Origin: a virus
Virus genome (UHGV): UHGV-0008871
Strand: one strand, 5' to 3'
DNA: 47,120 nt
This document shows, one piece after another, positions 442-44,426 of this stretch. Every line of letters starts with the position of its first letter. The first letter of the stretch is position 1. The position numbers were made by a program, and so were the translations under genes. The notes beneath the pieces are model-generated. The model did not search any database and was not told where the DNA came from. It was given only the letters and a program-made list of their open reading frames with translations.

Positions 442-456
442 TGGTGTCCCCTGCAG
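442..456. repeat. Prophage attachment-site core (distal copy): 15-bp direct repeat tggtgtcccctgcag, identical to the 3' end of the argW tRNA gene at 44352-44366
   Basis: Exact 15/15 match to 44352-44366 read from the sequence; lies just beyond torI, as expected for the junction far from the integrase. Confidence 0.8.
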
Positions 457-529
457 ACATCTACTTGGCGCGGCAGGGGATTGATTGGAATGATGTTTTT
501 TAGATGTGAAAAATATTTTACCCGCTATT

Positions 530-730
530 TTACCCATTGGCGCGGCTTAAGAGCTTATTTTTGAATTCACAATGGTCACGATATAACCATCTTGCTCGTC
601 CGTGGATAACTTTGGCTTTTGGCAGGTCGCCGGACTTAATCCGGTCGTAGATGAAGGTTTTACCGAAGCCAGTATCGGCCATGATGAATTTCAAATCAAC
701 CAGTGAATCAGGCTGTAGTTCGTGTTGCAT
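530..730 (-). CDS. torI: Recombination directionality factor / excisionase, AlpA-TorI family (66 aa)
   Basis: 66-aa ORF MQHELQPDSLVDLKFIMADTGFGKTFIYDRIKSGDLPKAKVIHGRARWLYRDHCEF... matches my recollection of E. coli KplE1 TorI; sits at the prophage end opposite the integrase. Confidence 0.75.
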   Translation of the reverse strand: MQHELQPDSLVDLKFIMADTGFGKTFIYDRIKSGDLPKAKVIHGRARWLYRDHCEFKNKLLSRANG

Positions 731-852
731 GAGTGCTATCTCCGAATAGGGAATCGAACCTGCAAATCAGGCAATAAAAAACCGCATTGATGCGGCGATG
801 GTAGGTCTGGATATCTTGATAAATGAAAATGCCTCATCGAGTGTGAGGCGGG

Positions 853-1197
853 TTAGTCCTTGCGTAGCTCGCTGATTCTTCTGTAAGTCTCTGGTGCTTT
901 GTTCCCGTACGTCTTCATTTCAGACTTCAACAGAGCAACGAGTGAATCCCATTCGTTGAGGATTCCTTTGAATGCCGGAACGCGCTTTGCAACCTTGTCG
1001 AATGAATCTCTGATTTCTGGAATCTGCTCAACAAGTGCAACGCATCGTCGGAAATCTGCTGCGTCATGTGGAGCGCCGAAGTGATGACCATAGATATTCT
1101 TTTTCAGTCCACATGCGATTGAGGCAAGAGTTGCGCTACTGATGCCAACATCGCCAGTTGATTGCCATTTCAAAACCTTCATAGCCAAATCTGACAT
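853..1197 (-). CDS. Hypothetical prophage protein (114 aa)
   Basis: Intact ORF co-oriented with the leftward early operon; no family recognised by eye. Confidence 0.5.
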   Translation of the reverse strand: MSDLAMKVLKWQSTGDVGISSATLASIACGLKKNIYGHHFGAPHDAADFRRCVALVEQIPEIRDSFDKVAKRVPAFKGILNEWDSLVALLKSEMKTYGNKAPETYRRISELRKD

Positions 1198-1269
1198 TTC
1201 TTGTCTCCATAAAACAAAACTCGCCGTAGCGAGTTCAGATAAAAGAAATCCCCGCGAATGCGAGGATTG

Positions 1270-1554
1270 TTATTCAGTGCCGATATTCACCTTTATCGCG
1301 TACACCTTTACCGGTTTATCGCCGAAGTGAGGATGTGTGATTGTCTTGATTTCATATCCGTCATACGGGACGTCAATTCTGCGGCTGGAATCGTCGCGCT
1401 TCGGATATCCCTTTGTGATAATCAGGCGGTCATACTCCCGGAACATAATTCGCTTATTCCAGTAGTCATTACACAGGCGATACTCTTCCGTTTTCTCGCC
1501 CCGCTTCATCTGGTCGAAGTATTCGCCGTTCACTGCCAGTTGCAGATTAGCCAT
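1270..1554 (-). CDS. ASCH/DUF3850-like small protein (94 aa)
   Basis: N-terminal pattern EYFDQMKRGEKTEEYRLCN resembles the ASCH-type beta-barrel signature (xYFxxxKxGxKTxExR); the 3' end overlaps the next gene's start by 8 nt (1547-1554). Confidence 0.45.
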   Translation of the reverse strand: MANLQLAVNGEYFDQMKRGEKTEEYRLCNDYWNKRIMFREYDRLIITKGYPKRDDSSRRIDVPYDGYEIKTITHPHFGDKPVKVYAIKVNIGTE

Positions 1555-2350
1555 TGTCAGCCTCCTGCTGCGGTGGTTCAGGAATCGACATCCATCTGAT
1601 TACATCGCAATTACGTAGACTGATGTCATCTCCAATCCATCCTTGACCTTCAGACCAGCATTGCACGTAATACCCGTCTGCGGCTTCAACTACGCACCAC
1701 TGAGCGTCGTCAGGCATTCGCTCACTACAGCTCATCCAGACAGACGGAGTTACCGGAGAGTTGCGCATTGCGACCTTTAATGCCTCATAGAAGCAACCTT
1801 TCAGATTGTTGAACTGACGCCCATTTAGCGGGCCGTGTTCAGTCAGCATGTCGTGTAATTTCCATGCCGCGTCGTTTACTTCGCTGGATGACAGGGGAGG
1901 CAACTTGTAAGTTTGGCTTACAGGTTCGGCACCATGAAGCATGGCGTCGCTCCGCTCTATGCCATCCAGCGCGATTCGCAGTGCCTGAATTGTGGTAGAG
2001 CTATCGTTTGGAGCTATTCCATATCGCTCGAATACAGCTAAATGGTTGCGCATAATCTCAGGCGTAAGCTCTTTGTAAGCATAAGCGAGAGGCTCTGATG
2101 CATTATCCGGCGCAACCGACGCAGGCGCGGCAGCATAAACAGGAATAACGTCCGCTTGCTCTTTATTGCTTTCATCCGTTAAAGCCCAGAATAATTTCCC
2201 GGCCGGATGTTTGAAAATATAAGCAACTGGCTCTGCTTCCAGCGATGCCAGTGCAATTCGTGCCAGTTCCATTTGTTCGCCACGAGTAAGCCCGTTTTCA
2301 AGCGGATCTTTAATGAACAATTCAATACGCTCTTTGGTAATAGAATTCAT
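1547..2350 (-). CDS. Hypothetical prophage protein with C-terminal Trp/Cys-rich DUF551-like region (267 aa)
   Basis: C-terminal WMSCSERMPDDAQWCVVEAADGYYVQCWSEGQGW resembles the DUF551 motif common in lambdoid early regions. Confidence 0.5.
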   Translation of the reverse strand: MNSITKERIELFIKDPLENGLTRGEQMELARIALASLEAEPVAYIFKHPAGKLFWALTDESNKEQADVIPVYAAAPASVAPDNASEPLAYAYKELTPEIMRNHLAVFERYGIAPNDSSTTIQALRIALDGIERSDAMLHGAEPVSQTYKLPPLSSSEVNDAAWKLHDMLTEHGPLNGRQFNNLKGCFYEALKVAMRNSPVTPSVWMSCSERMPDDAQWCVVEAADGYYVQCWSEGQGWIGDDISLRNCDVIRWMSIPEPPQQEADNG

Positions 2351-2351
2351 G

Positions 2352-2585
2352 CTATTTCACCTTAATCTCAACATTTCGCAGCTTTAGCTCTACTGGCAGG
2401 TCTGACTTTCCGGTTAATGCCAATGCGAGATTTTCTGGAGTAATGAGAGCAGTTATTGTTTTCCCCATTGCCAGACGAATAATCATTCGTATCTCGCAAT
2501 CGTCACATGCTCCAGGTCGAACAATTGATATTTCTCCATTCATCTCACTCTCCTTTGATGCGAATGCCAGCGGCACGGGAATCAT
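2352..2585 (-). CDS. Hypothetical small protein (77 aa; alternative start at 2543 gives 63 aa)
   Basis: ORF in the operon; its 5' end overlaps the Ea22-like stop, so the start is uncertain. Confidence 0.4.
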   Translation of the reverse strand: MIPVPLAFASKESEMNGEISIVRPGACDDCEIRMIIRLAMGKTITALITPENLALALTGKSDLPVELKLRNVEIKVK

Positions 2586-3162
2586 TCCATCGCTTTACTT
2601 CTTCACGAATTACGTCAATGCATTCTTTCGAATCCATTAGGTAATCTTCATCAAAAAGCCTTTCCTGTTCGTTTTCTATCGCAACAATGATTGCTTCAAC
2701 TAACTTTTGTGCCTGAGAACCACTTTCTAACTCTGCAATGCGCTTCTCTGCGGCTTCCAGCTTCTCGCGCATATCGTCAACGTACTCGACCAGAGATCCG
2801 CCAGCAGGAATTTCGCACTCCTCAACCAGTTGGAAGTAGATATCAGCTGCGGCCCGTGTGTTGCTATGCCTAGCGTCGCCCATCTCACCTTCACGAAGAG
2901 CATCGCGTTCGGCGGTAAGATTGGCTATTTTGCTGTCTTTGCCTTCCAGCTCAACGCGCAGCTTCCCTACCGTTAGCGCAATATCCTCGTTCTCCTGGTC
3001 GCGGCGTTTGATGTATTGCTGGTTTCTTTCCCTTTCATCCAGCAGTGTCAGCACAATCGATGGTGTTACCAGCTCATGGAAAAGGTCCGCGTCAAATCCC
3101 CAGTTGTCAGGCATTGCCTGCTCTGCCGCTTCACGCAGTGCCTGAGAGTGAATTACGCTCAC
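2545..3162 (-). CDS. Ea22-like coiled-coil early protein (205 aa)
   Basis: Position in the exo-xis region and acidic coiled-coil composition typical of lambdoid Ea22-type proteins. Confidence 0.5.
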   Translation of the reverse strand: MSVIHSQALREAAEQAMPDNWGFDADLFHELVTPSIVLTLLDERERNQQYIKRRDQENEDIALTVGKLRVELEGKDSKIANLTAERDALREGEMGDARHSNTRAAADIYFQLVEECEIPAGGSLVEYVDDMREKLEAAEKRIAELESGSQAQKLVEAIIVAIENEQERLFDEDYLMDSKECIDVIREEVKRWNDSRAAGIRIKGE

Positions 3163-3380
3163 TTCGAACCTCTCTGTTTACTGATAAGCTCCAGATCTTC
3201 CTGGCAACTTGCACAAGTCCGACAACCCTGAACGGCCAGGCGTCTTAGCTCATCTATGGGATCGCCACACTCACAACAATGAGTGGCAGATACAGCCTGG
3301 TGGTTCAGGCGGCGCATTTTTATTGCTGTGTTGCGCTGTAATTCTTCAATTTCTGATGCTGAATCAATGATGTCTGCCAT
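3159..3380 (-). CDS. TraR/DksA-family C4 zinc-finger protein (lambda orf73-like, 73 aa)
   Basis: CxxC...CxxC motif (CCECGDPI...CRTCASC) in a 73-aa protein; 4-nt overlap with the downstream gene. Confidence 0.7.
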   Translation of the reverse strand: MADIIDSASEIEELQRNTAIKMRRLNHQAVSATHCCECGDPIDELRRLAVQGCRTCASCQEDLELISKQRGSK

Positions 3381-3478
3381 CTTCCATTAATCCCTGAATT
3401 GTTGGTTAATACGCTTGGGGGTAAATGCGAGCAATAAAAAAGGAGCCTGTAGCTCCCTGATAATTTTGCTTTTCATGT

Positions 3479-3694
3479 TCATCGTTCCTTAAAGACGCCG
3501 TTTAACATGCCGATTGCCAGGCTTAAATGAGTCGGTGTGAATCCCATCAGCGTTACCGTTTCGCGGTGCTTCTTCAGTACGCTACGGCAAATGTCATCGA
3601 CGTTTTTATCCGGAAACTGCTGTCTGGCTTTTTTGATTTCAGAATTAGCCTGACGGGCAATGCTGCGAAGGGCGTTTTCTTGCTGAGGTGTCAT
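3479..3694 (-). CDS. Lambda exo-xis region protein, orf60a-like
   Basis: MTPQQENALRSIARQANSEIKKARQQFPDKNVDDICRSVLKKHRETVTLMGF... matches my recollection of lambda orf60a; start set at the internal Met (ORF track starts at 3760). Confidence 0.6.
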   Translation of the reverse strand: MTPQQENALRSIARQANSEIKKARQQFPDKNVDDICRSVLKKHRETVTLMGFTPTHLSLAIGMLNGVFKER

Positions 3695-3770
3695 TGAACA
3701 AGCCCCATGTCGGCAAGCATAAGCACACAGAATATGAAGCCCGCTGCCAGAAAAATGCATTCAGTGGTTG

Positions 3771-3962
3771 TCATACCTGGTCTCTCTCATCTGCTTCTGC
3801 TTTCGCCACCATCATTTCCAGCTTTTGTGAAAGGGATGCGGCTAACGTATGAAATTCTTCGTCTGTTTCTACTGGTATTGGCACAAACCTGACTCCAATT
3901 TGAGCGAGGCTATGTGCCATCTCGATACACGTTCTTAACTCAACAGGAGATGCTTTGTGCAT
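3771..3962 (-). CDS. Lambda exo-xis region protein, orf63-like (63 aa)
   Basis: [63 protein letters not shown]; recalled lambda orf63. Confidence 0.6.
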   Translation of the reverse strand: MHKASPVELRTCIEMAHSLAQIGVRFVPIPVETDEEFHTLAASLSQKLEMMVAKAEADERDQV

Positions 3963-4123
3963 ACAGCCCCCCGTTTATTATTTATCTCCTCAGCCAGCCG
4001 CTGTGCTTTCAGGGGATTTCTGATAACAGAAAGGCCGGGAAATACCCAGCCTCGCTTTGTAACGGAGTAGACGAAAGTGATCGCACCTACCCGGATATTA
4101 TCGTGAGGATGCTTCATCGCCAT
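3935..4123 (-). CDS. Lambda exo-xis region protein, orf61-like (62 aa)
   Basis: [62 protein letters not shown]; recalled lambda orf61; overlaps the end of exo. Confidence 0.55.
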
Positions 4124-4794
4124 TGCTCCCCAAATACAAAACCAATTTCAGCCAGTGCCTCGTCCATTTTTTCGATGAACTCCGGCACCATCTCGTCAAA
4201 ACTCGCCATGTACTTTTCATCCCGCTCAACCACGACATAATGCAGGCCTTCACGCTTCATACGCGGGTCATAGTTGGCAAAGTACCAGGCATCTTTTCGC
4301 GTCACCCACATGCTGTACTGCACCTGGGCCATGTAAGCCGACTTTATGGCCTCGAAACCACCGAGCCGGAACTTCATGAAATCCCGGGAGGTAAACGGGC
4401 ATTTCAGCTCAAGGCCATTGCCGTCACTGCATAAACCATCGGGAGAGCAGGCGGTGCGCATACTTTCGTCGCGATAGATGATCGGGGATTCAGTAACATT
4501 CACGCCGGAAGTGAATTCAAACAGGGTTCTGGCGTCGTTCTCGTACTGTTTTCCCCAGGCCAGCGCCTTAGCATTAACTTCCGGAGCCACACCGGTGCAA
4601 ACCTCAGCCAGCAGGGTGTGGAAGTAGGACATTTTCATGTCAGGCCACTTCTTTCCTGAGCGGGGCTTTGCTATCACGTTGTGAACTTCTGAAGCGGTGA
4701 TGACGCCGAGCCGTAATTTGTGCCATGCATCATCCCCCTGTTCGACAGCTCTCACGTCGATCCCGGTACGCTGCAGGATAATGTCCGATGTCAT
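4114..4794 (-). CDS. exo: Lambda exonuclease (Red alpha), 226 aa
   Basis: Near residue-for-residue match to recalled lambda Exo (…[53 protein letters not shown]…GEQWR); ATGA-type overlap with bet. Confidence 0.95.
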
Positions 4795-5576
4795 GCTGCC
4801 ACCTTCTGCTCAGTGGCTTTCTGTTTCAGGAATCCAAGAGCTTTCACTGCTTCGGCCTGTGTCAGTTCTGACGATGCGCGAATGTCGCGGCGAAATATCT
4901 GGGAACAGAGCGGCAATAAGTCGTCATCCCATGTTTTATCCAGGGCGATCAGCAGAGTGTTAATCTCCTGCATGGTTTCATCGTTAACCGGAGTGATGTC
5001 GCGTTCTGGCTGACGTTCTGCAGTGTATGCAGTATTTTCGACAATGCGCTCGGCTTCATCCTTGTCATAGATACCAGCAAATCCGAAGGCCAGACGGGCA
5101 CACTGAATCATGGCTTTATGCCGTAACATCCGTTTGGGATGCGACTGCCACGGCCCCGTGATTTCTCTGCCTTCGCGGGTTTTGAATGGTTCGCGGCGGC
5201 ATTCATCCATCCATTCGGTAACGCAGATCGGATGATTACGGTCCTTGCGGTAAATCCGGCATGTACAGGATTCATTGTCCTGCTCAAAGTCCATGCCATC
5301 AAACTGCTGGTTTTCATTGATGATGCGGGACCAGCCATCAACGCCCACCACCGGAACGATGCCATTCTGCTTATCAGGAAAGGCGTAAATTTCTTTCGTC
5401 CATGGATTAAGGCCGTACTGGTTGGCAACGATCAGTAATGCGATGAACTGCGCATCGCTGGCATCACCTTTAAATGCCGTCTGGCGAAGAGTGGTGATCA
5501 GTTCCTGTGGGTCGACAGAATCCATGCCGACGCGTTCAGCCAGCTTCCCAGCCAGCGTTGCGAGTGCTGTACTCAT
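4791..5576 (-). CDS. bet: Lambda Bet (Red beta) single-strand annealing protein, 261 aa
   Basis: Matches recalled lambda Bet ([66 protein letters not shown]…). Confidence 0.95.
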
Positions 5577-5581
5577 CCGTT

Positions 5582-5998
5582 TTATACCTCTGAATCAATA
5601 TCAACCTGGTGGTGAGCAATGGTTTCAACCATGTACCGGATGTGTTCTGCCATGCGCTCCTGAAACTCAACATCGTCATCAAACGCACGGGTAATGGCTT
5701 TTTTGCTGGCCCCGTGGCGTTGTAAATGATCGATGCAGAGTGATTCAAACAGGTGCTGGGGCAGACCTTTTTCCATGTCGTCTGCCAGTTCTGCCTCTTT
5801 CTCTTCACGGGCGATCTGCTGGTAGTGACGCGTCCAGCTCTGAGCCTCAAGACGATCCTGAATGTAATAAGCGTTCATGGCTGAACTCCTGAAATAGCTG
5901 TGAAAATATCGCCCGCGAAATGCCGGGCTGATTAGGAAAACAGGAAAGGAGGTTAGTGAATGCTTTTGCTTGATCTCAGTTTCAGTATTAATATCCAT
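5582..5998 (-). CDS. gam: Lambda Gam, RecBCD inhibitor (138 aa long form)
   Basis: [55 protein letters not shown]… matches recalled lambda Gam. Confidence 0.95.
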
Positions 5999-6096
5999 TT
6001 TTTATAAGCGTCGACGGCCTCACGAAACATCTTTTCATCGCCAATAAAAGTGGCGATAGTGAATTTAGTCTGGATAGCCATAAGTGTTTGGTCCAT
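5953..6096 (-). CDS. kil: Lambda Kil (host cell-division inhibitor, 47 aa)
   Basis: [47 protein letters not shown] inside the longer track ORF; start at the internal Met, overlapping cIII as in lambda. Confidence 0.85.
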
Positions 6097-6229
6097 TTTT
6101 TGGGACTCCTGGCTGATTAAGTATGTCGATAAGGCGTTTCCATCCGTCACGTAATTTACGGGTGATTCGTTCAAGTAAAGATTCGGAAGGGCAGCCAGCA
6201 ACAGGCCACCCTGCAATGGCATATTGCAT
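6065..6229 (-). CDS. cIII: Lambda cIII (FtsH/HflB inhibitor that stabilises cII), 54 aa
   Basis: Hand translation of the minus strand gives [54 protein letters not shown]; below the 60-aa track cutoff. Confidence 0.9.
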   Translation of the reverse strand: MQYAIAGWPVAGCPSESLLERITRKLRDGWKRLIDILNQPGVPKNGPNTYGYPD

Positions 6230-6301
6230 GGTGTGCTCCTTATTTATACATAACGAAAAACGCCTCGAGTGAAGCGTTATTGGTATGCGGTAACGCCGCG
6301 C

Positions 6302-6670
6302 TCAGGCGGCTTTGATAGTCATATCATCTGAATCAAATATTCCTGATGTATCGATATCGGTAATTCTTATTCCTTCGCTACCATCCATTGGAGGCCATCC
6401 TTCCTGACCATTTCCATCATTCCAGTCGAACTCACACACAACACCATATGCATTTAAGTCGCTTGAAATTGCTATAAGCAGAGCATGTTGCGCCAGCATG
6501 ATTAATACAGCATTTAATACAGAGCCGTGTTTATTGAGTCGGTATTCAGAGTCTGACCAGAAATTATTAATCTGGTGAAGTTTTTCCTCTGTCATTACGT
6601 CATGGTCGATTTCAATTTCTATTGATGCTTTCCAGTCGTAATCAATGATGTATTTTTTGATGTTTGACAT
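6302..6670 (-). CDS. ea10: Lambda Ea10-like early protein (122 aa)
   Basis: Size, position between cIII and sieB, and acidic C-terminus match lambda ea10 as I recall it. Confidence 0.6.
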   Translation of the reverse strand: MSNIKKYIIDYDWKASIEIEIDHDVMTEEKLHQINNFWSDSEYRLNKHGSVLNAVLIMLAQHALLIAISSDLNAYGVVCEFDWNDGNGQEGWPPMDGSEGIRITDIDTSGIFDSDDMTIKAA

Positions 6671-6692
6671 CTATTCATATCCTCACAGATAA

Positions 6693-6712
6693 AAAATCGC
6701 CCTCACATTGGA
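6693..6712 (-). terminator. Putative rho-independent terminator on the leftward transcript (hairpin gccctc/gagggc followed by a U-run)
   Basis: Minus-strand reading: gccctccaatgtgagggcgatttttt. Confidence 0.4.
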
Positions 6713-6930
6713 GGGCAAAGAAGATTTCCAATAATCAGAACAAGTCGGCTCCTGTTTAGTTACGAGCGACATTGCTCAGTGTATTCACTCGTTGGAATGA
6801 ATACACAGTGCAGTGTTTATTAGTATGCCTGTCTTTTAACCACATCAGGCTCGGTGGTTCTCGTGTACCCCTACAGCGAGAAATCGGATAAACTCTATTC
6901 ACCCCTACAGAGAGCAAAAGAGAAACGCCG

Positions 6931-7512
6931 ATGAACAACTCATGGTGGCAGGAACTAATGCATTTTTTCCTGCAAGGAATGACACTTAAACAGTTGATTC
7001 ATATGCTAATCATCCTAATCATATTGATTATTGTTATGCCTGTAAGCGTAAAAGAATGGATAAACCTGCATAATCCAGAAATCCTTCCTCATTACTGGAT
7101 GTATTACATCCTGTTGTTTTGCGTTAGCTATGTGCTTAACGGCGTTGTTAATTCCGCTTATCACGCTGTGACTGAAAGAATTGAGATATTCGCTGCTCAG
7201 AAGCGCAAATCTAAAGAAGAGAAATACGTGCAAGATTTGTTTGATTCGTTAACTCTTGGAGAAAGAGCGTATTTGGCATTCGCTGTAGCCGCTAATAACC
7301 AGCTAAAGACAGAAAAGGGAAGCCCTGAAGCAATCTCATTGCTCGAAAAAGGGCTTCTTATTCGGGTACCTTCTGCTACTGGATATCCTGAAATCGACCG
7401 TTTTGTTATCCCGGAACGCTATAGAAATGAGTGCTACATTAGGTTTGCTGGGAAGAAAGACAGTCTTATGGATGAACTTATCGCTCAGGATAAGCATGGC
7501 AAAAACAAGTAA
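6931..7512 (+). CDS. sieB: Superinfection exclusion protein B (193 aa, N-terminal membrane segment)
   Basis: Opposite orientation to the pL operon between ea10 and N, as lambda sieB; hydrophobic N-terminus (LIHMLIILIILIIVMPV). Confidence 0.7.
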   Translation: MNNSWWQELMHFFLQGMTLKQLIHMLIILIILIIVMPVSVKEWINLHNPEILPHYWMYYILLFCVSYVLNGVVNSAYHAVTERIEIFAAQKRKSKEEKYVQDLFDSLTLGERAYLAFAVAANNQLKTEKGSPEAISLLEKGLLIRVPSATGYPEIDRFVIPERYRNECYIRFAGKKDSLMDELIAQDKHGKNK

Positions 7513-7801: not shown

Positions 7802-7909
7802 GTTGACCTCCGATGATTGACTTTGGCGGTGACGCGCCGGGTGCTTATCTTCCGGTTGCCGTCGTGCAGCTGCACTTCACGTCACCCCAAAGCCAACTAC
7901 TCTTTGGTT

Positions 7910-7949
7910 CCCGCATTTCGGCGGGACAATCCCATCAATGTTAAAGAGC
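7910..7949 (-). promoter_or_regulatory. nutL candidate: boxA (gctctttaaca) and boxB hairpin (cccgccgaaatgcggg) on the leftward transcript
   Basis: The same boxA/boxB pair recurs downstream of cro at 9037-9079. Confidence 0.6.
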
Positions 7950-9417: not shown

Positions 9418-9451
9418 TGTAGAAAGACTGGATCAATCCACAGGAGTCATT

Positions 9452-36957: not shown

Positions 36958-36958
36958 C

Positions 36959-37663
36959 ATGCTGGACGATATCATCCGGTCGTATATGTATACGCAATAC
37001 AACGACGATGAAAATCTGCGGGCGTTTTTTACTGCGTATAACTCGATGGCGCAGGGCATTTATGACTGGATGGTTAATGCCAACCTGCCGATTTTCATCG
37101 GTGACTACAACACCGGAGATCAGCTCCGGTGGATTGCCCATGGCATCTATGGCGTTTTGCCGCCGGTGATTTCCAGCAGCGATCAGCAGGAGATAGGCCC
37201 ATATAACACCTTCGAATTTAACCAGCTGGCATTCAATGAGTACCGGGTGATTGACCAGTCAAACCAGGTTGTTGTCTCTGATGACCTTTTTAAGCGGATC
37301 ATGACCTGGAATTTTTACAAAGGTGACGGCTTCTATTTCTCTATCCCATGGATAAAGCGGCGTATTCTGCGGTTCCTTTTGGGAGTGAATGGCACCGACA
37401 TTCTCAACGACCAGCGATGGAGTATCTCGATCCAGTTTGTGGATGGCGGTATCGTGATTTCCATCTATAAAGGGCGCCGCATGTTCACGCGGAGCGCTAT
37501 CTACAATGCATCGGCCTATAACTCCAGGAAGTACAACCAGAAGGACACGGCCTTTGTGATCACTGAGGATTTCGAGTTCGCCATTTTTTTCAAGCAGGCC
37601 ATGGATAGCGGCCTGCTGCACATGCCGTTTTACCAGTCAGTCACGGTTGAGATATTTGATTAG
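36959..37663 (+). CDS. Putative baseplate/tail-fibre attachment protein (234 aa)
   Basis: Last + strand structural ORF before the tail fibre. Confidence 0.4.
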   Translation: MLDDIIRSYMYTQYNDDENLRAFFTAYNSMAQGIYDWMVNANLPIFIGDYNTGDQLRWIAHGIYGVLPPVISSSDQQEIGPYNTFEFNQLAFNEYRVIDQSNQVVVSDDLFKRIMTWNFYKGDGFYFSIPWIKRRILRFLLGVNGTDILNDQRWSISIQFVDGGIVISIYKGRRMFTRSAIYNASAYNSRKYNQKDTAFVITEDFEFAIFFKQAMDSGLLHMPFYQSVTVEIFD

Positions 37664-37964: not shown

Positions 37965-40900
37965 ATGGCACTAACCCTTTTGGCTACAAACAACGCAGAA
38001 AGCACGCTGGCTTCTGCTATCAGCGCAACCGACACGTCGCTGATCGTTAGCGCTGGAACTGGTGCCGAGTTCCCTGATGCTGTGGCAGGCGAGAGTTACT
38101 TTAAGCTCACTCTCACCGATGCCGCCACCGGCTCACAGGTTGAGATCGTGAACGTGACAGCTAAGGCCGGAGACATCTTCACGATTGAACGTGCGCAAGA
38201 AGGAACGCTGGCGCGTGCGTGGGCGGCCAACGACATGGTTGCCAACATGATGACGGCGGATACGCTGAACATTATCGCTCAATATGCCCAGCAGGCAGCT
38301 GCATCAGCAGATCAGGCAATTGAGGCTGCTAATAACGCCTCTGAATACGCAAAGAACAAATACACATTCTATAAGACTGCCAGCGATCCTGATGGCACCA
38401 TTGCAGGGTTGGCAGCAACTACTGACGGCCAGTCGTTCTGGGTAGCTCAGGGGCCAGATGCGCTTTCTGCTGCATGGCAGTATCAAAACAATGCTGGCGT
38501 GGCCGTGTTGCAGGCCAAGCAGCCAGGGACAGCGGCCATAACAGGGACAATCCGCGAGTTTCCGACGCTGGCTGCGGCGCAGGCAGACGCAGCTGCGGGT
38601 AATATACCGGTGGGATCAACTGCTTATTATCGCAGCTCAGATGACAATAATCTTTCAATTGAGGTTATCAATACCGCTGGTACGTTGGTAGCAACCGGAA
38701 GAAAAATTCCAGCGTATTCCGCTTTGCGTAGAGGCAACATTTTATTCGACGCATTTAATGAATATTCCTCAAGCCTTTTAACATTCGCTAACTGGGATTG
38801 GTATAAAGGCGCTACGCCAACATTTTCTACTACTGATGTTAATTTGCCGCTTCCAACACCTGTTATTCAAGCTTCTGGTGTAACATCGTTTGATAAATAT
38901 TACGATGTGTCAAAATTACAGGTAAAACCAGGAGACACTTTAGCTTTCTCTGTTTTGGTATGGTTCGAGAACGCTGGAGGCAAGTTACAGATTTATTGGC
39001 TTGATTCAGCAGGAGTAACCATCACTACAGGGGAGGCCTCTCCACTGGTTGCTGGTATATCTTCGCCGGTTGTGGTCATTGCTGTGCCATCTGGCGCATC
39101 ATCCATACGAATTCGGGTGCAAAACACTGTGTCAGGGGCGTTCAAAATCGGTGCCTATGCCGCAGCTATTGGTGATGTTACTCCTGAATTCACAAGGTCT
39201 TTCCCTTCAAAAGCGTACCAGGAGGCATTGGGTACCCCTGATAACCTCGTGTACGATCCTTTTGGCGAGATGCTTTCCGTTCGCCCTAAGCAAGGACTCC
39301 CAGCAGGCGTGGTTGACGCCATGAGTTACGCAGGAACATTGATTCAGAACAGCGCAAATTCACCATGGGGTAAGACCGGGATCCAAAACACGTCAGGAGT
39401 TGGTGCTGATCGTATTATTTCTCTCAGTTCGATGGGGGTTAAGCCGGGAGACACAATCACTGTCCGTCTGGCTGCATGGTTCGCGTCAACGGGTGGCACG
39501 TTTCAGGTTTTCTGTCGTAATGCATCCGGAGTACTTTCTTCGGCAACTATTGCCGCATCAGCATCCGGCTTTAATGATGGAAGTACCACGCTGACAATAC
39601 CAGCATCAACGACATACCTTACGCTTCGCGCATCAGGGGCTATGGTCAAGGAGCTGGTTGCCATAGGTGTAGCTTTCGGACGATCTCGCCCTGAGTTTAT
39701 TTACGGTAGCCTTCCAGCAGAGTATTCAGGATACCAGCGCCAGCAGATTAACCTGTGGCCTGATCCCTGGTATCGCCGCTACGAGTGCGGGGAAACGTGT
39801 ATTGATGGTTGGGGTCCTGCTCAAGTAGCAGGGGTTTCACTACCAGCATATGTTGCGGATTATTCTGGCAGCCCGTTTCTTAGGAAAAAATCTCTGATTA
39901 TCCCAGTAGGTGGTGGTCAGACGGATATTAACATTTCAGCAAAGCGGCTTGGACTGCGTGCTGGAGATTCGCTGACAGTAGCGCTGGGTGTGGTATCGTC
40001 TCAGGCAATCAACGTGGCAGCATATTTCCGGACGGCTAGCGGGACTGTTATTAGTGACAGTTCGTCTCAGTTGTTCCAGTTCCCAACCCAGCAATATCAG
40101 ACTCTGGTTCGCACAATAGCTATCACCCAGACTATTGTTGATACGGCTGGATATCTGCAAATCCGCCTTATGAATGGGCAGACTGTTGGCGCTGCAGGTG
40201 TTTATGTTGTTGCCAGGGGGCTCTTTGTTGGGAATGGCTCTCCTGTACTGAGTGATGATACGTACCGACAGGATGTCGATTACACAACTTCCAGAGCATT
40301 CACGTTAAATCAGGATTCACTCAGAGAGACACATAAGCGCCTGATGAACAGGCGGCTTTCTCAGTCAGCAACACTGGTAACAGCGCACATTGGCGATAGC
40401 TGGACTCACCTGTGGAACCGATGGAGCGGAATTTTTGCCGGAAAAATGCAGGCTGACTATGGCAGTGCAGGTATCGGCTATATCGGATTTGGCTATCCGT
40501 CTGAGGCGGGTTTCGGGCAGTATAACGGCAATATACTTGGTCAGATAACTTTGACCAAAACAGGAACATGGACGCCGACATATGCGGCAGCACAGAGCGC
40601 AGATATTTGTAGCGTCTCGTCTTCTGATACCACCGCTACTTTCAGGGCGAACGGTATACCGGCAAATGCATCGTCAGTCCGCCTTTTTGCTAAACCTCAG
40701 GGGAGTGTTAAATACAGCACAGATGGTGGAGTTAACTGGACAACTATCGACCTGAGCACGTTCACTGACCTTGCGGTTGTCAGCCTCACGGTACCGGCAA
40801 CAGCTTTCAATATCTGGTTCAGTCCGGTATCAGGAACCGTTGAACTGTACGGTCTGGATGTGCAGACCGCGACAGATGGTGTCCGGTCTCACAAGCTGGG

Positions 40901-41354
40901 TGCGACGGGGAGTTCTGCTCAACAATGGGCGGCGCAGGTTACCAGCGCAACATGGAAAGCAGCATTCACCGCGCTGGCCCCCAATCTGGTGACAATTCTG
41001 CATGGGACCAATGACCAGACATCATCCCGTGATCCATCCGCGTTTGCTGCCGATATTCAGACGATAATCACAGCAGTTCGCACTGCATGCCCGTTGGCTG
41101 ATGTTCTGGTGATCATGCCATGTGAAAACCAGAGGAATAACAATGTGGCAATGGCGGCGTATGCGTCTGTTGTACGGGATGTTTGTGCGCTAAACAGGGT
41201 GGCTTATCACAATCTCCAGATTGACTACGGAGACAAGCCATCTGATTACGCATCGACATCTCCACGCAACTGGTTCAATGCTGATGGAATCCATCCTGAC
41301 CCTGCAACTGGAGGTGGGCTGCCGATCGTTTCTGCTGTTTTGAAGTTAATGTAA
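37965..41354 (+). CDS. Long tail fibre: conserved N-terminal anchor domain, three internal ~110-aa repeats, C-terminal SGNH/GDSL-type esterase-like domain (1129 aa from Met at 37965)
   Basis: RBS ggagg before ATG 37965; SGNH blocks HIGDSWT, HGTND and DGIHPD in the last ~330 aa; N-terminus homologous to the second fibre. Confidence 0.75.
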   Translation: MALTLLATNNAESTLASAISATDTSLIVSAGTGAEFPDAVAGESYFKLTLTDAATGSQVEIVNVTAKAGDIFTIERAQEGTLARAWAANDMVANMMTADTLNIIAQYAQQAAASADQAIEAANNASEYAKNKYTFYKTASDPDGTIAGLAATTDGQSFWVAQGPDALSAAWQYQNNAGVAVLQAKQPGTAAITGTIREFPTLAAAQADAAAGNIPVGSTAYYRSSDDNNLSIEVINTAGTLVATGRKIPAYSALRRGNILFDAFNEYSSSLLTFANWDWYKGATPTFSTTDVNLPLPTPVIQASGVTSFDKYYDVSKLQVKPGDTLAFSVLVWFENAGGKLQIYWLDSAGVTITTGEASPLVAGISSPVVVIAVPSGASSIRIRVQNTVSGAFKIGAYAAAIGDVTPEFTRSFPSKAYQEALGTPDNLVYDPFGEMLSVRPKQGLPAGVVDAMSYAGTLIQNSANSPWGKTGIQNTSGVGADRIISLSSMGVKPGDTITVRLAAWFASTGGTFQVFCRNASGVLSSATIAASASGFNDGSTTLTIPASTTYLTLRASGAMVKELVAIGVAFGRSRPEFIYGSLPAEYSGYQRQQINLWPDPWYRRYECGETCIDGWGPAQVAGVSLPAYVADYSGSPFLRKKSLIIPVGGGQTDINISAKRLGLRAGDSLTVALGVVSSQAINVAAYFRTASGTVISDSSSQLFQFPTQQYQTLVRTIAITQTIVDTAGYLQIRLMNGQTVGAAGVYVVARGLFVGNGSPVLSDDTYRQDVDYTTSRAFTLNQDSLRETHKRLMNRRLSQSATLVTAHIGDSWTHLWNRWSGIFAGKMQADYGSAGIGYIGFGYPSEAGFGQYNGNILGQITLTKTGTWTPTYAAAQSADICSVSSSDTTATFRANGIPANASSVRLFAKPQGSVKYSTDGGVNWTTIDLSTFTDLAVVSLTVPATAFNIWFSPVSGTVELYGLDVQTATDGVRSHKLGATGSSAQQWAAQVTSATWKAAFTALAPNLVTILHGTNDQTSSRDPSAFAADIQTIITAVRTACPLADVLVIMPCENQRNNNVAMAAYASVVRDVCALNRVAYHNLQIDYGDKPSDYASTSPRNWFNADGIHPDPATGGGLPIVSAVLKLM

Positions 41355-41387
41355 AACTCCTACATTGATCTTCCCTCACAACAATAA

Positions 41388-41407
41388 TACTGTGTGTTTG
41401 TACAGTA
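41388..41407 (+). promoter_or_regulatory. LexA (SOS) box taCTGTgtgtttgtACAGta within the promoter of the downstream two-gene cassette
   Basis: Perfect CTGT-N8-ACAG palindrome with TA flanks, 18 nt upstream of a gggaggg RBS; overlaps a TATTAT -10-like hexamer. Confidence 0.7.
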
Positions 41408-41425: not shown

Positions 41426-41665
41426 ATGCTTCGACAGTCAGACATCGCAGCGGCGTTCCGCGAGTCGGTATTGCGCAGTTCCAAGGGGTTCCAGTACCTT
41501 CACACCCGCGACTTCGTTACCGCGCTGCGCCGGCGCGGCATCCATTTTTCCGAGGTGGAGGCGAACTCCTGGATCGCACGCGAGCAAACGTATTTCGTCG
41601 ACAAAACGGCAGAGCATAGTGAAAACTGCCTGTGGATGATGGCCAACATGGGGAGGATTCTGTAA
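41426..41665 (+). CDS. Hypothetical SOS-regulated protein (79 aa)
   Basis: Strong RBS gggaggg 7 nt upstream; LexA box in the promoter; TAATG coupling to the next gene. Confidence 0.55.
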   Translation: MLRQSDIAAAFRESVLRSSKGFQYLHTRDFVTALRRRGIHFSEVEANSWIAREQTYFVDKTAEHSENCLWMMANMGRIL

Positions 41666-41982
41666 TGGGCTTTCCTTCACCCGCGACGGATTACGTTGAG
41701 CAGCGACTGTCTGTCAACTCGATCTGCAATGTTGGGCCTAATACGTTGCTCTTCGAACGGTCTGGCGGTTACGTTGTGCTGGATATCTCCCTGAAGCCAA
41801 AGCAGGGTAGCCAACTACTTATACAGCACGGCGGCGGGACGGAGCTTGCCACGCTGAGAGGAAGGTCGCTGATTACTGAAGATGGTGAAGCGATCGAGGG
41901 CGAAGCCCTGGACGATGTTACTGTCATCGGCGTCGTGACGTTTACTATCTGCGATGTTCGTTCCGATAATTCTATTATTTAA
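41665..41982 (+). CDS. UmuD'-like protein lacking a recognisable serine-protease motif (105 aa)
   Basis: N-terminus MGFPSPATDYVEQRLSVN matches the UmuD/MucA post-cleavage N-terminus (GFPSPAADYVEQRIDLN); QLLIQH and VIGVV also echo UmuD; no GDSM motif. Confidence 0.55.
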   Translation: MGFPSPATDYVEQRLSVNSICNVGPNTLLFERSGGYVVLDISLKPKQGSQLLIQHGGGTELATLRGRSLITEDGEAIEGEALDDVTVIGVVTFTICDVRSDNSII

Positions 41983-41993
41983 CTGGGGTATAT

Positions 41994-43025
41994 ATGGCGC
42001 TGAAGCTATTAGCCAATAATAACGCAAAGAGTGTTCTCGCTGCGGGTATTAGCGCGTCCGCTACCGTTATTACCGTGGGTACTGGAGCGGGGTCTTTATT
42101 CCCGTCCCCTGTATCAGGGCAGAGTTATTTCAAATTAACGATAACCGACGCGGCCACGAAAACAATTTCTGAAATTATGCACGTCACGTCTGTATCCGGT
42201 GACGTGATGACAGTAATTCGTGGTCAGGAAGGAACTACGGCACGTGTATGGTCAACGAATGACATTGTTGCGAATTTAATGACCGCCGGGTCTTTATTAT
42301 CTTTCCTGCAGATCAGCAATAACCTGTCAGAAATTAAAGATGCCGGTGATGATGCGGTAAATGAAGCCCGTTATAACCTCGGAATATCTGATTCCTCTGG
42401 TTTTGTCGGGCGTTCTCTTGGCGCACCAAAAACTTTCTATACAAATGGAACTTATACTCGCTCACCGCTGGCCCGTTATGCAAAAGTAACGTTGGTCGGA
42501 GGTGGCGGCGGCGGTGGCGGGTGCCAGGCATCTAATAACACCGAAACCTTTTCCGGTGCCGGCGGCGGCGCGGGTGCGACCATTATCGTATGGGTTGACC
42601 TGTCTGCTGCCAGTTCTTACGCGATTACTGTCGGCAAGGGTGGTAAGGGCGGAGTTGGCGCAGTAAGTGGTGCGGATGGTGGTGCTACCTCGTTTGCCAG
42701 CCTGTTCTCAGCTCCTGGCGGGAAAGGCGGCGTGAAGTCAGGCGTGTCCAATACCGCCGGCGGCGCCGGAGGTACGGCGGCGACCGGAGATATCAGGATC
42801 AACGGTGGTACCGGCTCAGATGGACAGACAGGCTCAAGCCTTCTGACGGGCAACGGCGGGGCGTCGTATTTTGGCGGCGGTGGCCGGGCGGGTTCTCAGG
42901 CCGGTATTGCTGGCGCAGCTCCCGGATCCGGTGGTGGTGGCGCGTATGACCTTGGGTTTACCGGTACGGCATTTACCGGTGGTGATGGTGCTACTGGCAT
43001 GGCGATCGTGGAAGAATTCGCGTAA
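41994..43025 (+). CDS. Second tail fibre: same N-terminal anchor domain as the long fibre, Gly-rich C-terminal domain (343 aa)
   Basis: N-terminal ~100 aa alignable by eye with fibre 1; C-terminal half is Gly-rich (GGGGGGG, GGxGG repeats). Confidence 0.7.
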   Translation: MALKLLANNNAKSVLAAGISASATVITVGTGAGSLFPSPVSGQSYFKLTITDAATKTISEIMHVTSVSGDVMTVIRGQEGTTARVWSTNDIVANLMTAGSLLSFLQISNNLSEIKDAGDDAVNEARYNLGISDSSGFVGRSLGAPKTFYTNGTYTRSPLARYAKVTLVGGGGGGGGCQASNNTETFSGAGGGAGATIIVWVDLSAASSYAITVGKGGKGGVGAVSGADGGATSFASLFSAPGGKGGVKSGVSNTAGGAGGTAATGDIRINGGTGSDGQTGSSLLTGNGGASYFGGGGRAGSQAGIAGAAPGSGGGGAYDLGFTGTAFTGGDGATGMAIVEEFA

Positions 43026-43029
43026 TGGC

Positions 43030-44226
43030 TTACACTCCTGCACGACCATCGATGTAATCAGCCCACCATTGCATCATTTCTCTGCGCTTATCGAGATACT
43101 GAGCATGGTTGTAAATTCCACGTACAGATCCGCCGTTGGCATGTGCCAGCTGCACTTCAATAGCGTCAGCAGGCCATTCGTGCTCGTTCATAATCGTGCT
43201 GAATTCATGCCTGAATCCGTGACCGCTTTCCAGACCTTCATAGCCGATTTGTTTGATCACAAGCAATACCGCGTTCTCGCAGATTGGCTTCTTCTTATCG
43301 TTGCGCCCGGCAAAAACAAACTCTGAGACTGGTTTGGTGATTGAGCTTAGCGTAGTGAGAAGTTCAACCACCTGGTCTGACATCGGGACCACATGAATTT
43401 TGCGTCCCTTCATCACACTGGCGTCGATGGTGATAATCCTGTTTTCAAAATCGACGTTCTTCCATAGCATGGAACGAAGCTCTTTTGTTCTTAGGGCTGT
43501 GTAGCGTAAAACTTTGGTCGCAATGAGCGATACGATACTTCCTGAAAATGTTGCAAGTGCTTTGTTGAATGCCGGGATCTGGTCGGCAGGTAAAAACGGG
43601 AAGTTCTTCTTGCGGTATCCCTTCATGGCGTCAGCAAGGTCAGGTGCCGGGTTATATTTAGCCCTACCAGTGACAATAGCGTAACGGAAAACCTCGCCGC
43701 ATCTTCTGCGGGCTTTGTTGGCTCGCTCCATTGCACCGCGATCTTCAAATCTGCGGATTACTTCCAGCAGTTGCATCGGCTCAATATCCTGAATTTCAAG
43801 GCCGCCGATGATAGGTAAAATGTCGTCATCAAACATTTTTGCAAGTTCAGTCGCATACCCTACTGACCATACTTGCTTCTTGTGCTCGTACCATTCCTTG
43901 TAAATCGCACTAAAGGAATTGTTGTTAGACGAAGCCTTTTTCGCCTTTACCGGATCGATGCCAACCGAGATGTCTTTCCTCGCAGTCCATGCCTTATCCC
44001 TTGCTTCCTGCAAAGTCATAAGCGGATATTTTCCGACGGTCAGGATTTTCTCCTTACCGTCAATCTTGTAGCGAAGCTGCCATACCTTTTTCCCTGACAC
44101 AGGGACATAAAGGTACAGGCCATTACCATCGAGAAGGCGGTATGGTTTTTCTTTCGGCTTTGCTGCTTCAATCTGCTTAACGGTGAGCATGGGTAAAAAT
44201 CCGGTGGGTAAAATTATTTTATCCAC
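43030..44226 (-). CDS. intS: Tyrosine integrase, P4/IntS-type (398 aa; alternative start at 44190)
   Basis: Adjacent to the tRNA-Arg gene; catalytic HGFRH…Y region; matches my recollection of E. coli IntS (CPS-53/KplE1). Confidence 0.85.
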   Translation of the reverse strand: MDKIILPTGFLPMLTVKQIEAAKPKEKPYRLLDGNGLYLYVPVSGKKVWQLRYKIDGKEKILTVGKYPLMTLQEARDKAWTARKDISVGIDPVKAKKASSNNNSFSAIYKEWYEHKKQVWSVGYATELAKMFDDDILPIIGGLEIQDIEPMQLLEVIRRFEDRGAMERANKARRRCGEVFRYAIVTGRAKYNPAPDLADAMKGYRKKNFPFLPADQIPAFNKALATFSGSIVSLIATKVLRYTALRTKELRSMLWKNVDFENRIITIDASVMKGRKIHVVPMSDQVVELLTTLSSITKPVSEFVFAGRNDKKKPICENAVLLVIKQIGYEGLESGHGFRHEFSTIMNEHEWPADAIEVQLAHANGGSVRGIYNHAQYLDKRREMMQWWADYIDGRAGV

Positions 44227-44351
44227 TTTTTACCCGTCATGGAGTGCGGCTGTCAACGATCTGACGCGAACCATGACGAACTGTGAATCTACGGGAGGCT
44301 TGATATTCAGGGGATTTTGCGGACTGGTACGGATGGGAGCGAACTGATAAA

Positions 44352-44426
44352 TGGTGTCCCCTGCAGGAATCGAACCTGCAATTAGCCCTTAGGAGGGGCT
44401 CGTTATATCCATTTAACTAAGAGGAC
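44352..44426 (-). tRNA. argW: tRNA-Arg (anticodon CCU), prophage integration target
   Basis: Hand-folded cloverleaf from the minus strand: GTCCTCTTAGTTAAATGGATATAACGAGCCCCTCCTAAGGGCTAATTGCAGGTTCGATTCCTGCAGGGGACACCA; last 15 nt repeated at 442-456. Confidence 0.85.

Follow-up and report, generated by a model that had tools for sequence, protein, structure and literature searches.

Lambdoid phages that carry IntS and integrate at argW are already well known, and include HK620, Sf6, CUS-3, Kapi1 and VT2phi_272 (PMC2951348). Together with HK633, IME10 and the KplE1 element, they have the same recombination module as the prophage described here, although most are P22-like and short-tailed, as judged from their Lederbergvirus assignment and vB_EcoP names. 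In the KplE1/HK620-type module, as in this prophage, the target is the 3' end of argW and the intS promoter lies inside attL (PMC2951348, PMC3509656). KplE1 itself is not SOS-inducible, a statement for which the authors cite unpublished data (PMC2951348). A second group of described relatives belongs to the Felixviridae (ICTV 2025), namely the plaque-forming vB_Kpn_Chronis (Chronisvirus chronis) and RothC and RothD (Nakavirus sapi). The Felixviridae core has been likened structurally to the myophage Pam3 (PMC12629751).

The window analyzed here is the whole 47,120-nt stretch of the virus genome UHGV-0008871. With a probability of roughly 0.9, it holds a 43,910-bp temperate phage genome that has integrated at the 3' terminus of the argW gene in a csc-positive E. 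coli and is composed of three known modules (Table 1). The first is the IntS/TorI/att recombination module common to KplE1, HK620, Sf6 and CUS-3. The second is a lambdoid early and regulatory region with lambda red, O/P, nin and S/R genes, P22/phage 21 immunity, an N-nut system, and a 21-type Q with two tRNAs. The third is a Felixviridae (Chronis/Roth-type) virion module encoding a contractile-tailed particle with two receptor-binding proteins.

Table 1. Features of the argW prophage, in window coordinates
Feature	Position	Strand	Basis and remarks
attR core (K-12 nomenclature), torI end	442-456	.	Exact 15-mer repeat, empty-site test; equivalent to K-12 pawZ
attR phage arm with GGGTAAAAT-type repeats	457-529	.	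Few differences from K-12; collinear with HK620 attP
torI, recombination directionality factor/excisionase	530-730	-	PHROG 66; last gene of leftward operon
Early-left accessory genes	853-3380	-	PHROG/Pfam: phrog_1229, phrog_625, DUF551, Ead/Ea22-like, DksA/TraR-like zinc finger
Lambda-type block orf61, orf63, orf60a, exo, bet, gam, kil, cIII, ea10	3623-6670	-	
sieB, superinfection exclusion	6931-7512	+	Pfam SieB, PHROG 1301; P22 SieB 85% aa
N-type antiterminator	7529-7801	-	PHROG 271; tblastn segments
nutL	7908-7949	-	boxA GCTCTTTAACA and boxB hairpin CCCGCCGAAATGCGGG
PL/OL operator region	7996-8113	-	Promoter-like TTGACC site, 8024-7996
Prophage repressor, P22 C2/phage 21 cI type, 216 aa	8114-8764	-	HTH_3 and full-length Peptidase_S24
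OR1-3/PRM/PR	8765-8844	.	PR-like TTGACT-16-GATAAT at 8787-8814
cro	8845-9030	+	95-97% identical to P22 and 21 Cro
nutR	9038-9081	+	boxA/boxB equal to those of nutL
cII/C1 homologue	9139-9417	+	C1 89% identical
O, P, ren	9452-11336	+	99.7%, 100% and 99% aa to lambda, all full length
nin region: ninB, N6-adenine methyltransferase, ninE, orf133, ninF, HNH endonuclease, ninG, ninI	11410-14931	+	tblastn to lambda; PHROG, Pfam and PADLOC matches
Late antiterminator Q, phage 21 type	14922-15440	+	85% aa identity to Q21
tRNA-Asn(GTT) and tRNA-Thr(TGT), late-operon leader	15503-15658	+	ARAGORN, Rfam
Lysis cassette: holin S, endolysin R, Rz/Rz1	15901-17139	+	
Rha-family protein	17302-17862	+	Annotation in near-identical genomes; P22 Rha 36% identical
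Terminase, small; large	17924-18664; 18668-19999	+	PHROG 370; PHROG 2
Head module	20011-25791	+	PF06381; PHROG 146, 324, 530/2229, 264
Four conserved genes, capsid-to-sheath interval	25864-28124	+	Chronis gp7-gp10, full length, 92-99.7%
Tail sheath; presumed tail tube	28129-29523; 29527-29964	+	
Tape measure and baseplate genes	29968-37663	+	PHROG 2276/873, 196, 6; Pfam Baseplate_J
Tail spike, 1129 aa	37965-41354	+	PHROG 38670, Pfam Lipase_GDSL_2; uninterrupted frame
UmuD'/HumD-like small protein	41632-41982	+	PHROG 3469; NCBIfam HumD E 1e-12, under curated cut-off
Second, short tail fibre	41994-43025	+	N-terminal anchor and Gly_rich_2; PHROG 863/6202, Pfam PF21722
intS, tyrosine integrase	43030-44190	-	Arm-DNA-bind_3, Phage_int_M and Phage_integrase domains; adjoins argW
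attL phage arm, overlaps intS promoter	44191-44351	.	Comparison with K-12 argW-intS interval
argW, tRNA-Arg(CCU)	44352-44426	-	3'-terminal 15 nt (44352-44366) = attL core copy, the right-hand repeat; ARAGORN/Rfam

Junctions and the recombination module

The repeat TGGTGTCCCCTGCAG occurs exactly twice in the window, even with one mismatch allowed, and a shuffled-sequence control returned 0 matches. A virtual empty site, made by fusing window positions 1-456 to 44367-44966, gave one gapless alignment at 100% coverage and 99.7% identity, and is present in 1414 of 5426 complete E. coli genomes when at least 80% of it is required in one place. The empty locus of strain 190 reads cscA-cscK-cscB, 441 bp, argW, yfdC and mlaA. 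Because the repeat is exact and unique, and the empty site contiguous in other genomes, this reconstruction identifies the two copies as the true prophage junctions, with an inserted element of 43,910 bp (457-44366). An earlier note on this DNA had drawn the same boundaries from the 15-bp repeat (~43.9 kb) and raised the question of whether 442-456 is the true junction, which is answered in the affirmative. One small correction is that the left host flank is the csc sucrose locus and not dsdC, making the host a csc-positive E. coli.

Similarity to K-12 begins precisely at the core copy at 442. At the other end, attL with PintS is identical to the K-12 argW-intS interval at 247 of 251 nt, and its arm has the same TTGACA box and all of the same GGGTAAAA and TTTTACCC repeats. 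When the prophage ends are joined in silico, the virtual attP (the int-attP-torI interval of 249 bp) aligns gap-free to that of HK620 with 239 identical positions (96%). Whereas the attP core of HK620 is annotated as 16 nt, the duplication here measures 15 nt, since a G follows the tRNA CCA end in this host flank. IntS, the only integrase in the window, shares 379 of 385 residues with K-12 IntS by global alignment (99.5% over 381 aa by tblastn) and is 98-99% identical to the integrases of CUS-3, Sf6 and HK620, with a range of 97-99.5% over all the phages listed above for this module. TorI matches its K-12 counterpart at 66 of 66 residues. The two lie at opposite ends of the prophage, with IntS beside argW, in the split arrangement of KplE1 that had been recognized earlier; this follows from the positions of the integrase and directionality factor genes on either side of attP.

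The shared integration site, the 100% identical TorI, the 98-99% identical IntS and the conserved att arms could be taken to mean that the K-12 KplE1/CPS-53 remnant derives from an intact prophage of this type, and the earlier note had described the present one as an intact version of that element. However, CPS-53 DNA is absent outside the recombination module. The DNA common with K-12 comprises only the att-torI segment at 442-849 (93%) and intS with the host flank at 43058-47120 (98%), and only three of the 18 CPS-53 proteins, IntS, TorI and a weak 38% YfdO, are matched in the window. Instead, the CPS-53 genes yfdG, yfdH, yfdL, yfdM, yfdN and yfdP-ypdJ are 82-97% identical in DNA to Shigella phage SfV, which shares with the window only a 437-bp endolysin stretch and, at E 1e-3, no detectable virion protein similarity. 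By these alignments, SfV is a relative of the CPS-53 remnant and not of this prophage, to which it is alike in concept only, through its lambda-like gene order and sheathed contractile tail. Descent of the K-12 remnant from a prophage of this type is very improbable, and gene content already refutes it. The HK620-type phages also differ from this prophage throughout, outside of the IntS/TorI/att module.

Early region, immunity and lysis

The leftward lambda-type block is 97.5% identical to lambda in nucleotides and 93-100% in amino acids, and contains the cIII thermoregulator RF01804 at 6184-6242. The proteins Exo, Bet, Gam, O, P and Ren are 97-100% identical to those of lambda, and the range widens to 96-100% when ninB/G/I and S/R are included. 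Within the lysis cassette, identity to lambda is 99% for S and R and 59% for Rz. Unlike lambda, the prophage has no int/xis of lambda type, rex, ninC, ninD or ninH, and its nin region contains an extra methyltransferase and HNH endonuclease (13092-13598).

Immunity is of the P22/phage 21 type. The repressor shows 93% identity to C2 of P22 and 98% to the cI of phage 21. Both phages also have nearly the same OR operators as this prophage, with ~75 of 80 nt matching P22 OR by inspection of the printed sequences; the OL region resembles P22 OL on side-by-side inspection. Each early transcript carries the identical boxA and boxB once, at nutL and nutR, and these are found nowhere else in the window. 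Here torI ends a complete repressor-controlled PL operon, whereas KplE1 is without a cI regulator module (PMC2951348). The N antiterminator is a chimera of three parts, of which the middle resembles phage 21 and the C-terminus P22 gp24. Downstream of Q, the tR' hairpin is conserved with phage 21, in which the tRNA-Asn/Thr pair also occupies the same place. Owing to the chimeric nature of N and the identity of Q to Q21 of only 85%, the antitermination competence of both is assumed.

Virion module and mosaic relatives

Lambda, phage 21 and P22 have unrelated virion modules. Across the stretch running from TerL to the final baseplate gene (18668-37661, ~19 kb), the module here is 95-97% identical in nucleotides to Klebsiella phage vB_Kpn_Chronis. 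Each of the 21 core virion genes has its full length, and all but the tape measure (66%) share 90-99.7% identity with their Chronis counterparts. For TerL, the identity to Chronis gp1 is 99.5%. The head proteins, which include a portal, a head-morphogenesis protein, a NUDIX-prohead protease fusion (22257-23870), a 286-aa protein and the major capsid protein (24760-25791), are full length and 90-99.6% identical to gp2-gp6. Gene order and published work on the family (PMC12629751) indicate that the next four genes probably encode head-tail connector or neck proteins. The 464-aa sheath matches PHROG 205 (tail sheath) across the whole protein at E 1e-51, and the sheath and tube are 97% and 99% identical to gp11 and gp12. 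The counterparts of gp13-gp21 are likewise all full length, among them a tape measure with a lytic transglycosylase domain (30598-32481), a baseplate hub (33463-34500) and a Baseplate_J protein (35539-36957). The tail spike has a conserved anchor at its N-terminus and an SGNH/GDSL hydrolase domain at its C-terminus, and the central cassette between them is swapped. Its match to Chronis gp23 is limited to the first ~257 aa, after which the receptor-binding part is replaced.

Chronis also resembles this prophage in its lambdoid layout, its IntS-type integrase (85%), its TorI-type directionality factor (57 of 66 residues) and a tRNA-Asn in the late leader. Its early region, however, is almost wholly different, and whole-genome similarity is ~45%, under the 70% genus line. 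The hosts of Chronis and the Roth phages are Klebsiella, whereas the host here is E. coli. As the earlier note had proposed, the argW element is a lambdoid prophage with a complete set of genes, having lambda-type recombination and replication genes, P22-type immunity and, from its sheath, hub and Baseplate_J proteins, a contractile tail. To call the mosaic itself notable was an overstatement, given how well known lambdoid phages with IntS at argW are.

At least 32 complete E. coli genomes have the same right half at their argW locus, and 38 related viral contigs are present in IMG/VR, most with the same tail backbone; those that reach past int end in argW-yfdC. None of the complete E. coli genomes holds at least 80% of the left half (window 1-25000) in one place, and the exact early-region combination is thus without a tested sibling. 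This last result could also suggest a chimeric assembly, or a pair of tandem elements with a single set of att sites. Against this, elppa10 is collinear with the window at 1-796 and, in blocks, at 9427-28000, and MEI008 is collinear at 15854-47120, overlapping elppa10 across the early/late boundary. Furthermore, there is a single integrase with only two core copies, gene order is canonically lambdoid throughout, and the breakpoints fall at gene boundaries, as is typical of lambdoid mosaicism. A chimeric or tandem origin is very improbable. Non-coding gaps do not exceed ~310 bp, and no transposase or IS-family matches occur among the annotated genes.

Proposed life cycle

The sequence itself shows that IntS joined the attP core to the final 15 nt of argW by recombination, such that the phage copy restores the tRNA. 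By analogy with homologues, the C2/cI-type repressor would hold PL and PR in the lysogen, where sieB and a self-repressed intS would be expressed. Gene content and order suggest that the SOS response would trigger self-cleavage of the S24 repressor and open PL and PR. Acting at the matching nutL and nutR, N would then let leftward transcription proceed past the red genes as far as torI, with which the operon ends, and TorI, together with IntS and IHF, would excise the genome. Its replication would be carried out by O and P, and Q would turn on the lysis and virion genes.

It is possible, though on balance unlikely, that the prophage is gene-complete but cryptic, persisting stably with SieB and repressor immunity while excision, replication or assembly has been lost through lesions invisible to ORF-level comparison, which is blind to inactivating point mutations that cause no truncation. 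The chimeric N and diverged Q may mismatch their target sites, and among IMG/VR contigs with a joined attP none has this virion module. Additionally, the repressor of the elppa10 sibling prophage is annotated as a pseudogene, which indicates that decay does occur in this lineage. Against a cryptic state stand the intact core virion genes, so similar to those of a plaque-forming phage, and the full-length lambda O, P, exo, bet, S and R (98-100%), along with the retention of both repressor domains, the identity of boxA and boxB between nutL and nutR, and the conserved att arms. With full-length core virion genes, a repressor bearing both HTH and S24 domains, and matching nutL and nutR, the prophage is plausibly inducible. 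As a combination of three well-known phage modules rather than an intact KplE1, it is, on the comparisons made here, an ordinary new member of known groups.

Integration at argW

On its gene content, the element is a lambdoid prophage at argW that carries a Felixviridae virion module. The insertion is delimited by the 15-mer TGGTGTCCCCTGCAG. This 15-mer has exactly two copies in the window, also in a search tolerant of one mismatch, against a chance expectation of none, and the right copy coincides with the 3' end of tRNA-Arg(CCU). To reconstruct the unoccupied locus, window positions 1-456 and 44367-44966 were joined and queried against 5426 complete Escherichia coli genomes. This virtual empty site returned one gapless alignment with 100% coverage and 99.7% identity, and it is found at 80% or more in one place in 1414 of the 5426 genomes. 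Because the empty site is contiguous in these genomes, the insert measures 43,910 bp, and the earlier note was correct in taking the repeat as the prophage boundary. On these alignments the phage integrated by exchanging cores with the 3' end of argW, the tRNA being regenerated by its own copy. E. coli strain 190, with an empty site, has the order cscA-cscK-cscB, 441 bp, argW, yfdC and mlaA. Correspondingly, the torI-side flank (window 1-441) is intergenic DNA downstream of cscB, of the csc sucrose-utilisation locus, and has no blastn match in the K-12 argW-dsdC region. The gene dsdC was considered as the left flank and rejected, as it represents the K-12 arrangement and the csc locus sits there instead.

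Principal features of the prophage, in window coordinates
Feature	Position	Strand	Remarks
Core copy, attR	442-456		torI side
TorI	530-730	minus	66/66 identical to K-12 TorI
N antiterminator	7529-7801	minus	three-part chimera
nutL	7908-7949
nutR	9038-9081
HNH_3 endonuclease	13092-13598	+	between ninF and ninG
Terminase, small and large subunits			family search
Portal	20011-21426	+	PF06381, PHROG 146; 471 aa
Head-morphogenesis protein			family search
NUDIX-prohead protease fusion	22257-23870	+	family search; 537 aa
Major capsid protein			family search
Tail sheath			PHROG 205, E 1e-51
Tape measure with transglycosylase domain			family search
Baseplate hub and Baseplate_J protein			family search
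Tail spike	37965-41354		1129 aa; Chronis N-terminal anchor kept over ~257 aa, then divergent; SGNH hydrolase domain at end
UmuD'/HumD-like small protein	41632-41982	+	between the two receptor-binding genes
Second short fibre	41994-43025		between spike and int
IntS	43030-44190	minus	379/385 identical to K-12 IntS, differences confined to last few residues
Core copy, attL	44352-44366		intS side
tRNA-Arg(CCU)	44352-44426	minus	argW

The placing of an IntS-like integrase beside this tRNA and a TorI-like excisionase at the opposite end was likewise borne out. IntS belongs to the tyrosine integrases and has the N-terminal arm-binding domain (Pfam Arm-DNA-bind_3, Phage_int_M and Phage_integrase), and the integrases of CUS-3, Sf6, HK620, HK633, IME10, Kapi1 and VT2phi_272 are 97-99.5% identical to it. 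In KplE1, the interval between argW and intS holds attL and the overlapping intS promoter, and the flanking of attP by the int and RDF genes was defined there (PMC2951348). The corresponding 251-nt interval here matches K-12 at 247 positions, with the TTGACA -35 box and all GGGTAAAA/TTTTACCC arm repeats unchanged. As in the KplE1/HK620-type module, the att core is the argW 3' end, duplicated at both prophage ends, and the int and RDF genes occupy opposite ends of the prophage, lying on either side of attP once these are joined. Such joining yields a 249-bp int-attP-torI interval that aligns with the attP region of free phage HK620 at 239/249 positions and with no gaps; the core annotated in HK620 is ATGGTGTCCCCTGCAG. 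The recombination module is thus, by sequence identity, the published argW module (PMC2951348, PMC3509656), and TorI/IntS-dependent excision is predicted. Two terminator-like hairpins (849-831 and 796-781) immediately precede torI on the leftward, minus strand; in HK620, the region matching window 781-849, upstream of its TorI gene, carries an annotated cII-activated promoter.

Relation to KplE1/CPS-53 and SfV

The earlier note had described the element as an intact version of KplE1/CPS-53, the K-12 remnant at the same tRNA. A gene-complete lambdoid prophage at argW is indeed present, but it is not an intact copy of that remnant, as shared gene content stops at the recombination module. The proposed alignment against K-12 argW-dsdC was run and recovered common DNA only at 442-849 (93%) and 43058-47120 (98%; intS and host flank). 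Of the 18 CPS-53 proteins, only IntS, TorI and, at 38%, YfdO have a match in the window, and the gtr, tail fibre and yfdM-yfdT genes have no DNA counterpart in it.

The K-12 genes instead resemble those of SfV. When the CPS-53 locus (L003; K-12 2466369-2476583) was compared with SfV (L073), nucleotide identity was 96.8% between yfdP to ypdJ and SfV orf32-orf28, 96% for yfdM/yfdN, 92% for yfdL and ~82% between yfdG/yfdH and gtrA/B. Outside intS and torI, the K-12 remnant is SfV-like by these identities. SfV was also weighed as kin of the virion module described here and rejected, since the window and SfV have in common only a 437-bp endolysin stretch and no shared virion protein was found. Given that the KplE1 genes are SfV-like and that the window shares the cassette only, the two are different phages with the same integration cassette. 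The K-12 remnant is therefore to be read as an SfV-like relic, and not as a decayed copy of the phage in the window.

Lambdoid control regions and the virion module

Segment maps and protein identities reveal the canonical lambdoid order of recombination, N, repressor/cro, cII, replication, nin, Q, lysis and virion genes. Over window 2927-6821, identity to lambda is 97.5%, with Exo, Bet, Gam, Kil, CIII and Ea10 at 97-100% amino acid identity, and lambda is again the close relative for O, P, Ren and NinB (99-100%), NinG and NinI (96%), and S and R (99%). The immunity region is, as judged by sequence, of the P22 immC/imm21 type. Its 216-aa repressor, comprising HTH_3 and a full-length Peptidase_S24 domain, shares 93% of its residues with P22 C2 and 98% with 21 cI; Cro is 95-97% identical to its P22/phage 21 counterparts, SieB shares 85% identity with that of P22, and OR matches P22 at ~75/80 nt by inspection and is near-identical to that of phage 21 too.

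Lambdoid N/nut and Q antitermination elements are both present. The N protein has an arginine-rich N-terminus of its own, a middle part resembling phage 21 and a C-terminus resembling P22 gp24, and nutL and nutR carry identical boxA and boxB sequences found nowhere else in the window, the boxB hairpin at both being CCCGCCGAAATGCGGG. Q shares 85% identity with Q21. A tRNA-Asn/tRNA-Thr pair comes after it, as in phage 21, where the same pair takes the same place. For non-coding RNAs, an Rfam scan of the window returned nothing beyond three tRNAs and the lambda cIII thermoregulator element. The HNH_3 gene lies in a local low-GC stretch (~42%). It is missing at the corresponding position in lambda, phage 21, P22 and E. 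coli strain elppa10, and resembles a free-standing homing endonuclease. A PADLOC scan for defence and anti-defence cargo gave two matches only, to a homing endonuclease and to an orphan methyltransferase.

The virion genes belong with another lineage. Felixviridae (ICTV 2025) is defined by Klebsiella phages vB_Kpn_Chronis and RothC/D, which conserve a structural core of ~20 kb, gp1-gp24 (PMC12451628; PMC12629751). Window 18668-37661 corresponds to this structural core and is 95-97% identical to Chronis in nucleotide sequence; for RothC and RothD, coverage of the virion query is 72%, at 95% identity. From TerL to the last baseplate protein (Chronis gp1-gp21), 21/21 core proteins are full length and 90-99.7% identical to Chronis, except for the tape measure (66%). 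The element falls outside the genera Chronisvirus and Nakavirus, with ~45% whole-genome similarity to Chronis, a BLAST-based estimate over 43.5 kb of its 45.7 kb, against a threshold of at least 70%.

A contractile tail is predicted, and is well supported by gene content. The sheath is assigned from its PHROG match together with the literature, and a sequence search of solved structures with it gave no significant match. The published core has been structurally likened to the minimal myophage Pam3 (PMC12629751); no statement on Chronis or Roth morphology was found in the literature. In sibling RefSeq genomes, the 471-aa portal bears the PGAP label 'anti-CBASS Acb1 family', which was rejected as an annotation artefact given its PF06381 and PHROG 146 matches; an NCBIfam search produced no Acb1 match. 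The 537-aa head protein joins an N-terminal NUDIX domain to a prohead protease (DUF2213, PHROG 530/2229) and a TolA-like stretch, the latter probably a scaffold. It is 99.6% identical to Chronis gp4, and its NUDIX box is intact (GGTIEPGE...REVLEETGY). Capsids may carry the NUDIX enzyme inside them. No paper on a NUDIX-prohead protease fusion was found in the literature.

Receptor-binding genes, distribution and significance

Ahead of its SGNH domain, the tail spike contains three mutually similar internal segments (VKPGDT...WF...GG...Q). An IMG/VR search with the short-fibre protein identified 38 related viral contigs (L010-L047), most of them prophages of isolate genomes, which keep 32.4-38.3 kb and 41.4-43.0 kb. 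Most have a common tail backbone and differ across ~38.3-41.4 kb, and where their DNA reaches beyond int, argW-yfdC is found at the end. The central and C-terminal spike (window 38300-41400) is, on this comparison, a swappable cassette. RefSeq treats the spike of the sibling prophage in strain MEI008 as a pseudogene plus CDS, a reading that was rejected because its 1136-codon frame is open, with 3 nt differences; the frame is open in the window too. The UmuD'/HumD-like protein starts with the motif GFPSPAxDYVEQR, where processed UmuD' begins. Over part of its length it shares 97% identity with Chronis gp25, and it has no Peptidase_S24 match in Pfam.

At 80% or more, the right half of the prophage occurs at argW in at least 32 complete E. 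coli genomes, and the left half in none. In the collections searched, no E. coli phage isolate carrying this virion module was found. IMG/VR was also scanned with an attP-type junction 26-mer; none of the 25 loci recovered was an excised or circular form of the prophage. Those with both phage arms joined are contigs of at most ~41.5 kb without Felixviridae tail genes beside int, and the remainder are attR ends with the host flank ...GGATAAA before the core. In some E. coli lineages the torI-side junction reads ...GGATAAA-TGGTG... (L049, L052, L053, L057, L067, L069, L070), as opposed to ...GGGTATC-TGGTG.... The former flank lengthens the match with the int-side phage arm to ~20 nt, and the 26-mer consequently matches those attR ends as well. 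The pattern is therefore not attP-specific, and the scan is evidence neither for nor against activity. No gene truncation or large non-coding gap was found in the prophage, nor any transposase or IS-family match among its annotated genes.

In the lysogen, the repressor would hold PL and PR, with intS self-repressed from its own promoter inside attL. RecA-stimulated repressor cleavage would start early transcription, and leftward transcription modified by N would run on as far as torI, which closes the leftward operon. Replication through O and P would come next, along with late expression dependent on Q. With torI so placed, excision would come under repressor control, unlike in KplE1, which is without a cI regulator module (PMC2951348).

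A more ambitious proposal sees here an inducible prophage that represents, in E. coli, the recently named and mostly Klebsiella-associated Felixviridae, and whose NUDIX-prohead protease-scaffold fusion travels into the next host inside the particle and hydrolyses nucleotides there, as an enzyme of counter-defence or host takeover. This is considered unlikely, at a probability of roughly 0.15.

The mosaic, which had been put forward as itself notable, is ordinary, such construction being typical of lambdoid phages, and the wider significance is small. The prophage is a clean case of module exchange: the IntS/TorI/argW recombination module works with no fewer than three unrelated virion types, namely P22-like, SfV-like and Felixviridae-like. 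The virion module moves across the Klebsiella-E. coli divide: nucleotide identity stays at 95-97%, and the receptor-binding cassette is the one part exchanged. If the prophage is inducible, the family would gain a host amenable to genetics, and both Felixviridae biology and repressor-controlled TorI expression would be open to study in E. coli.
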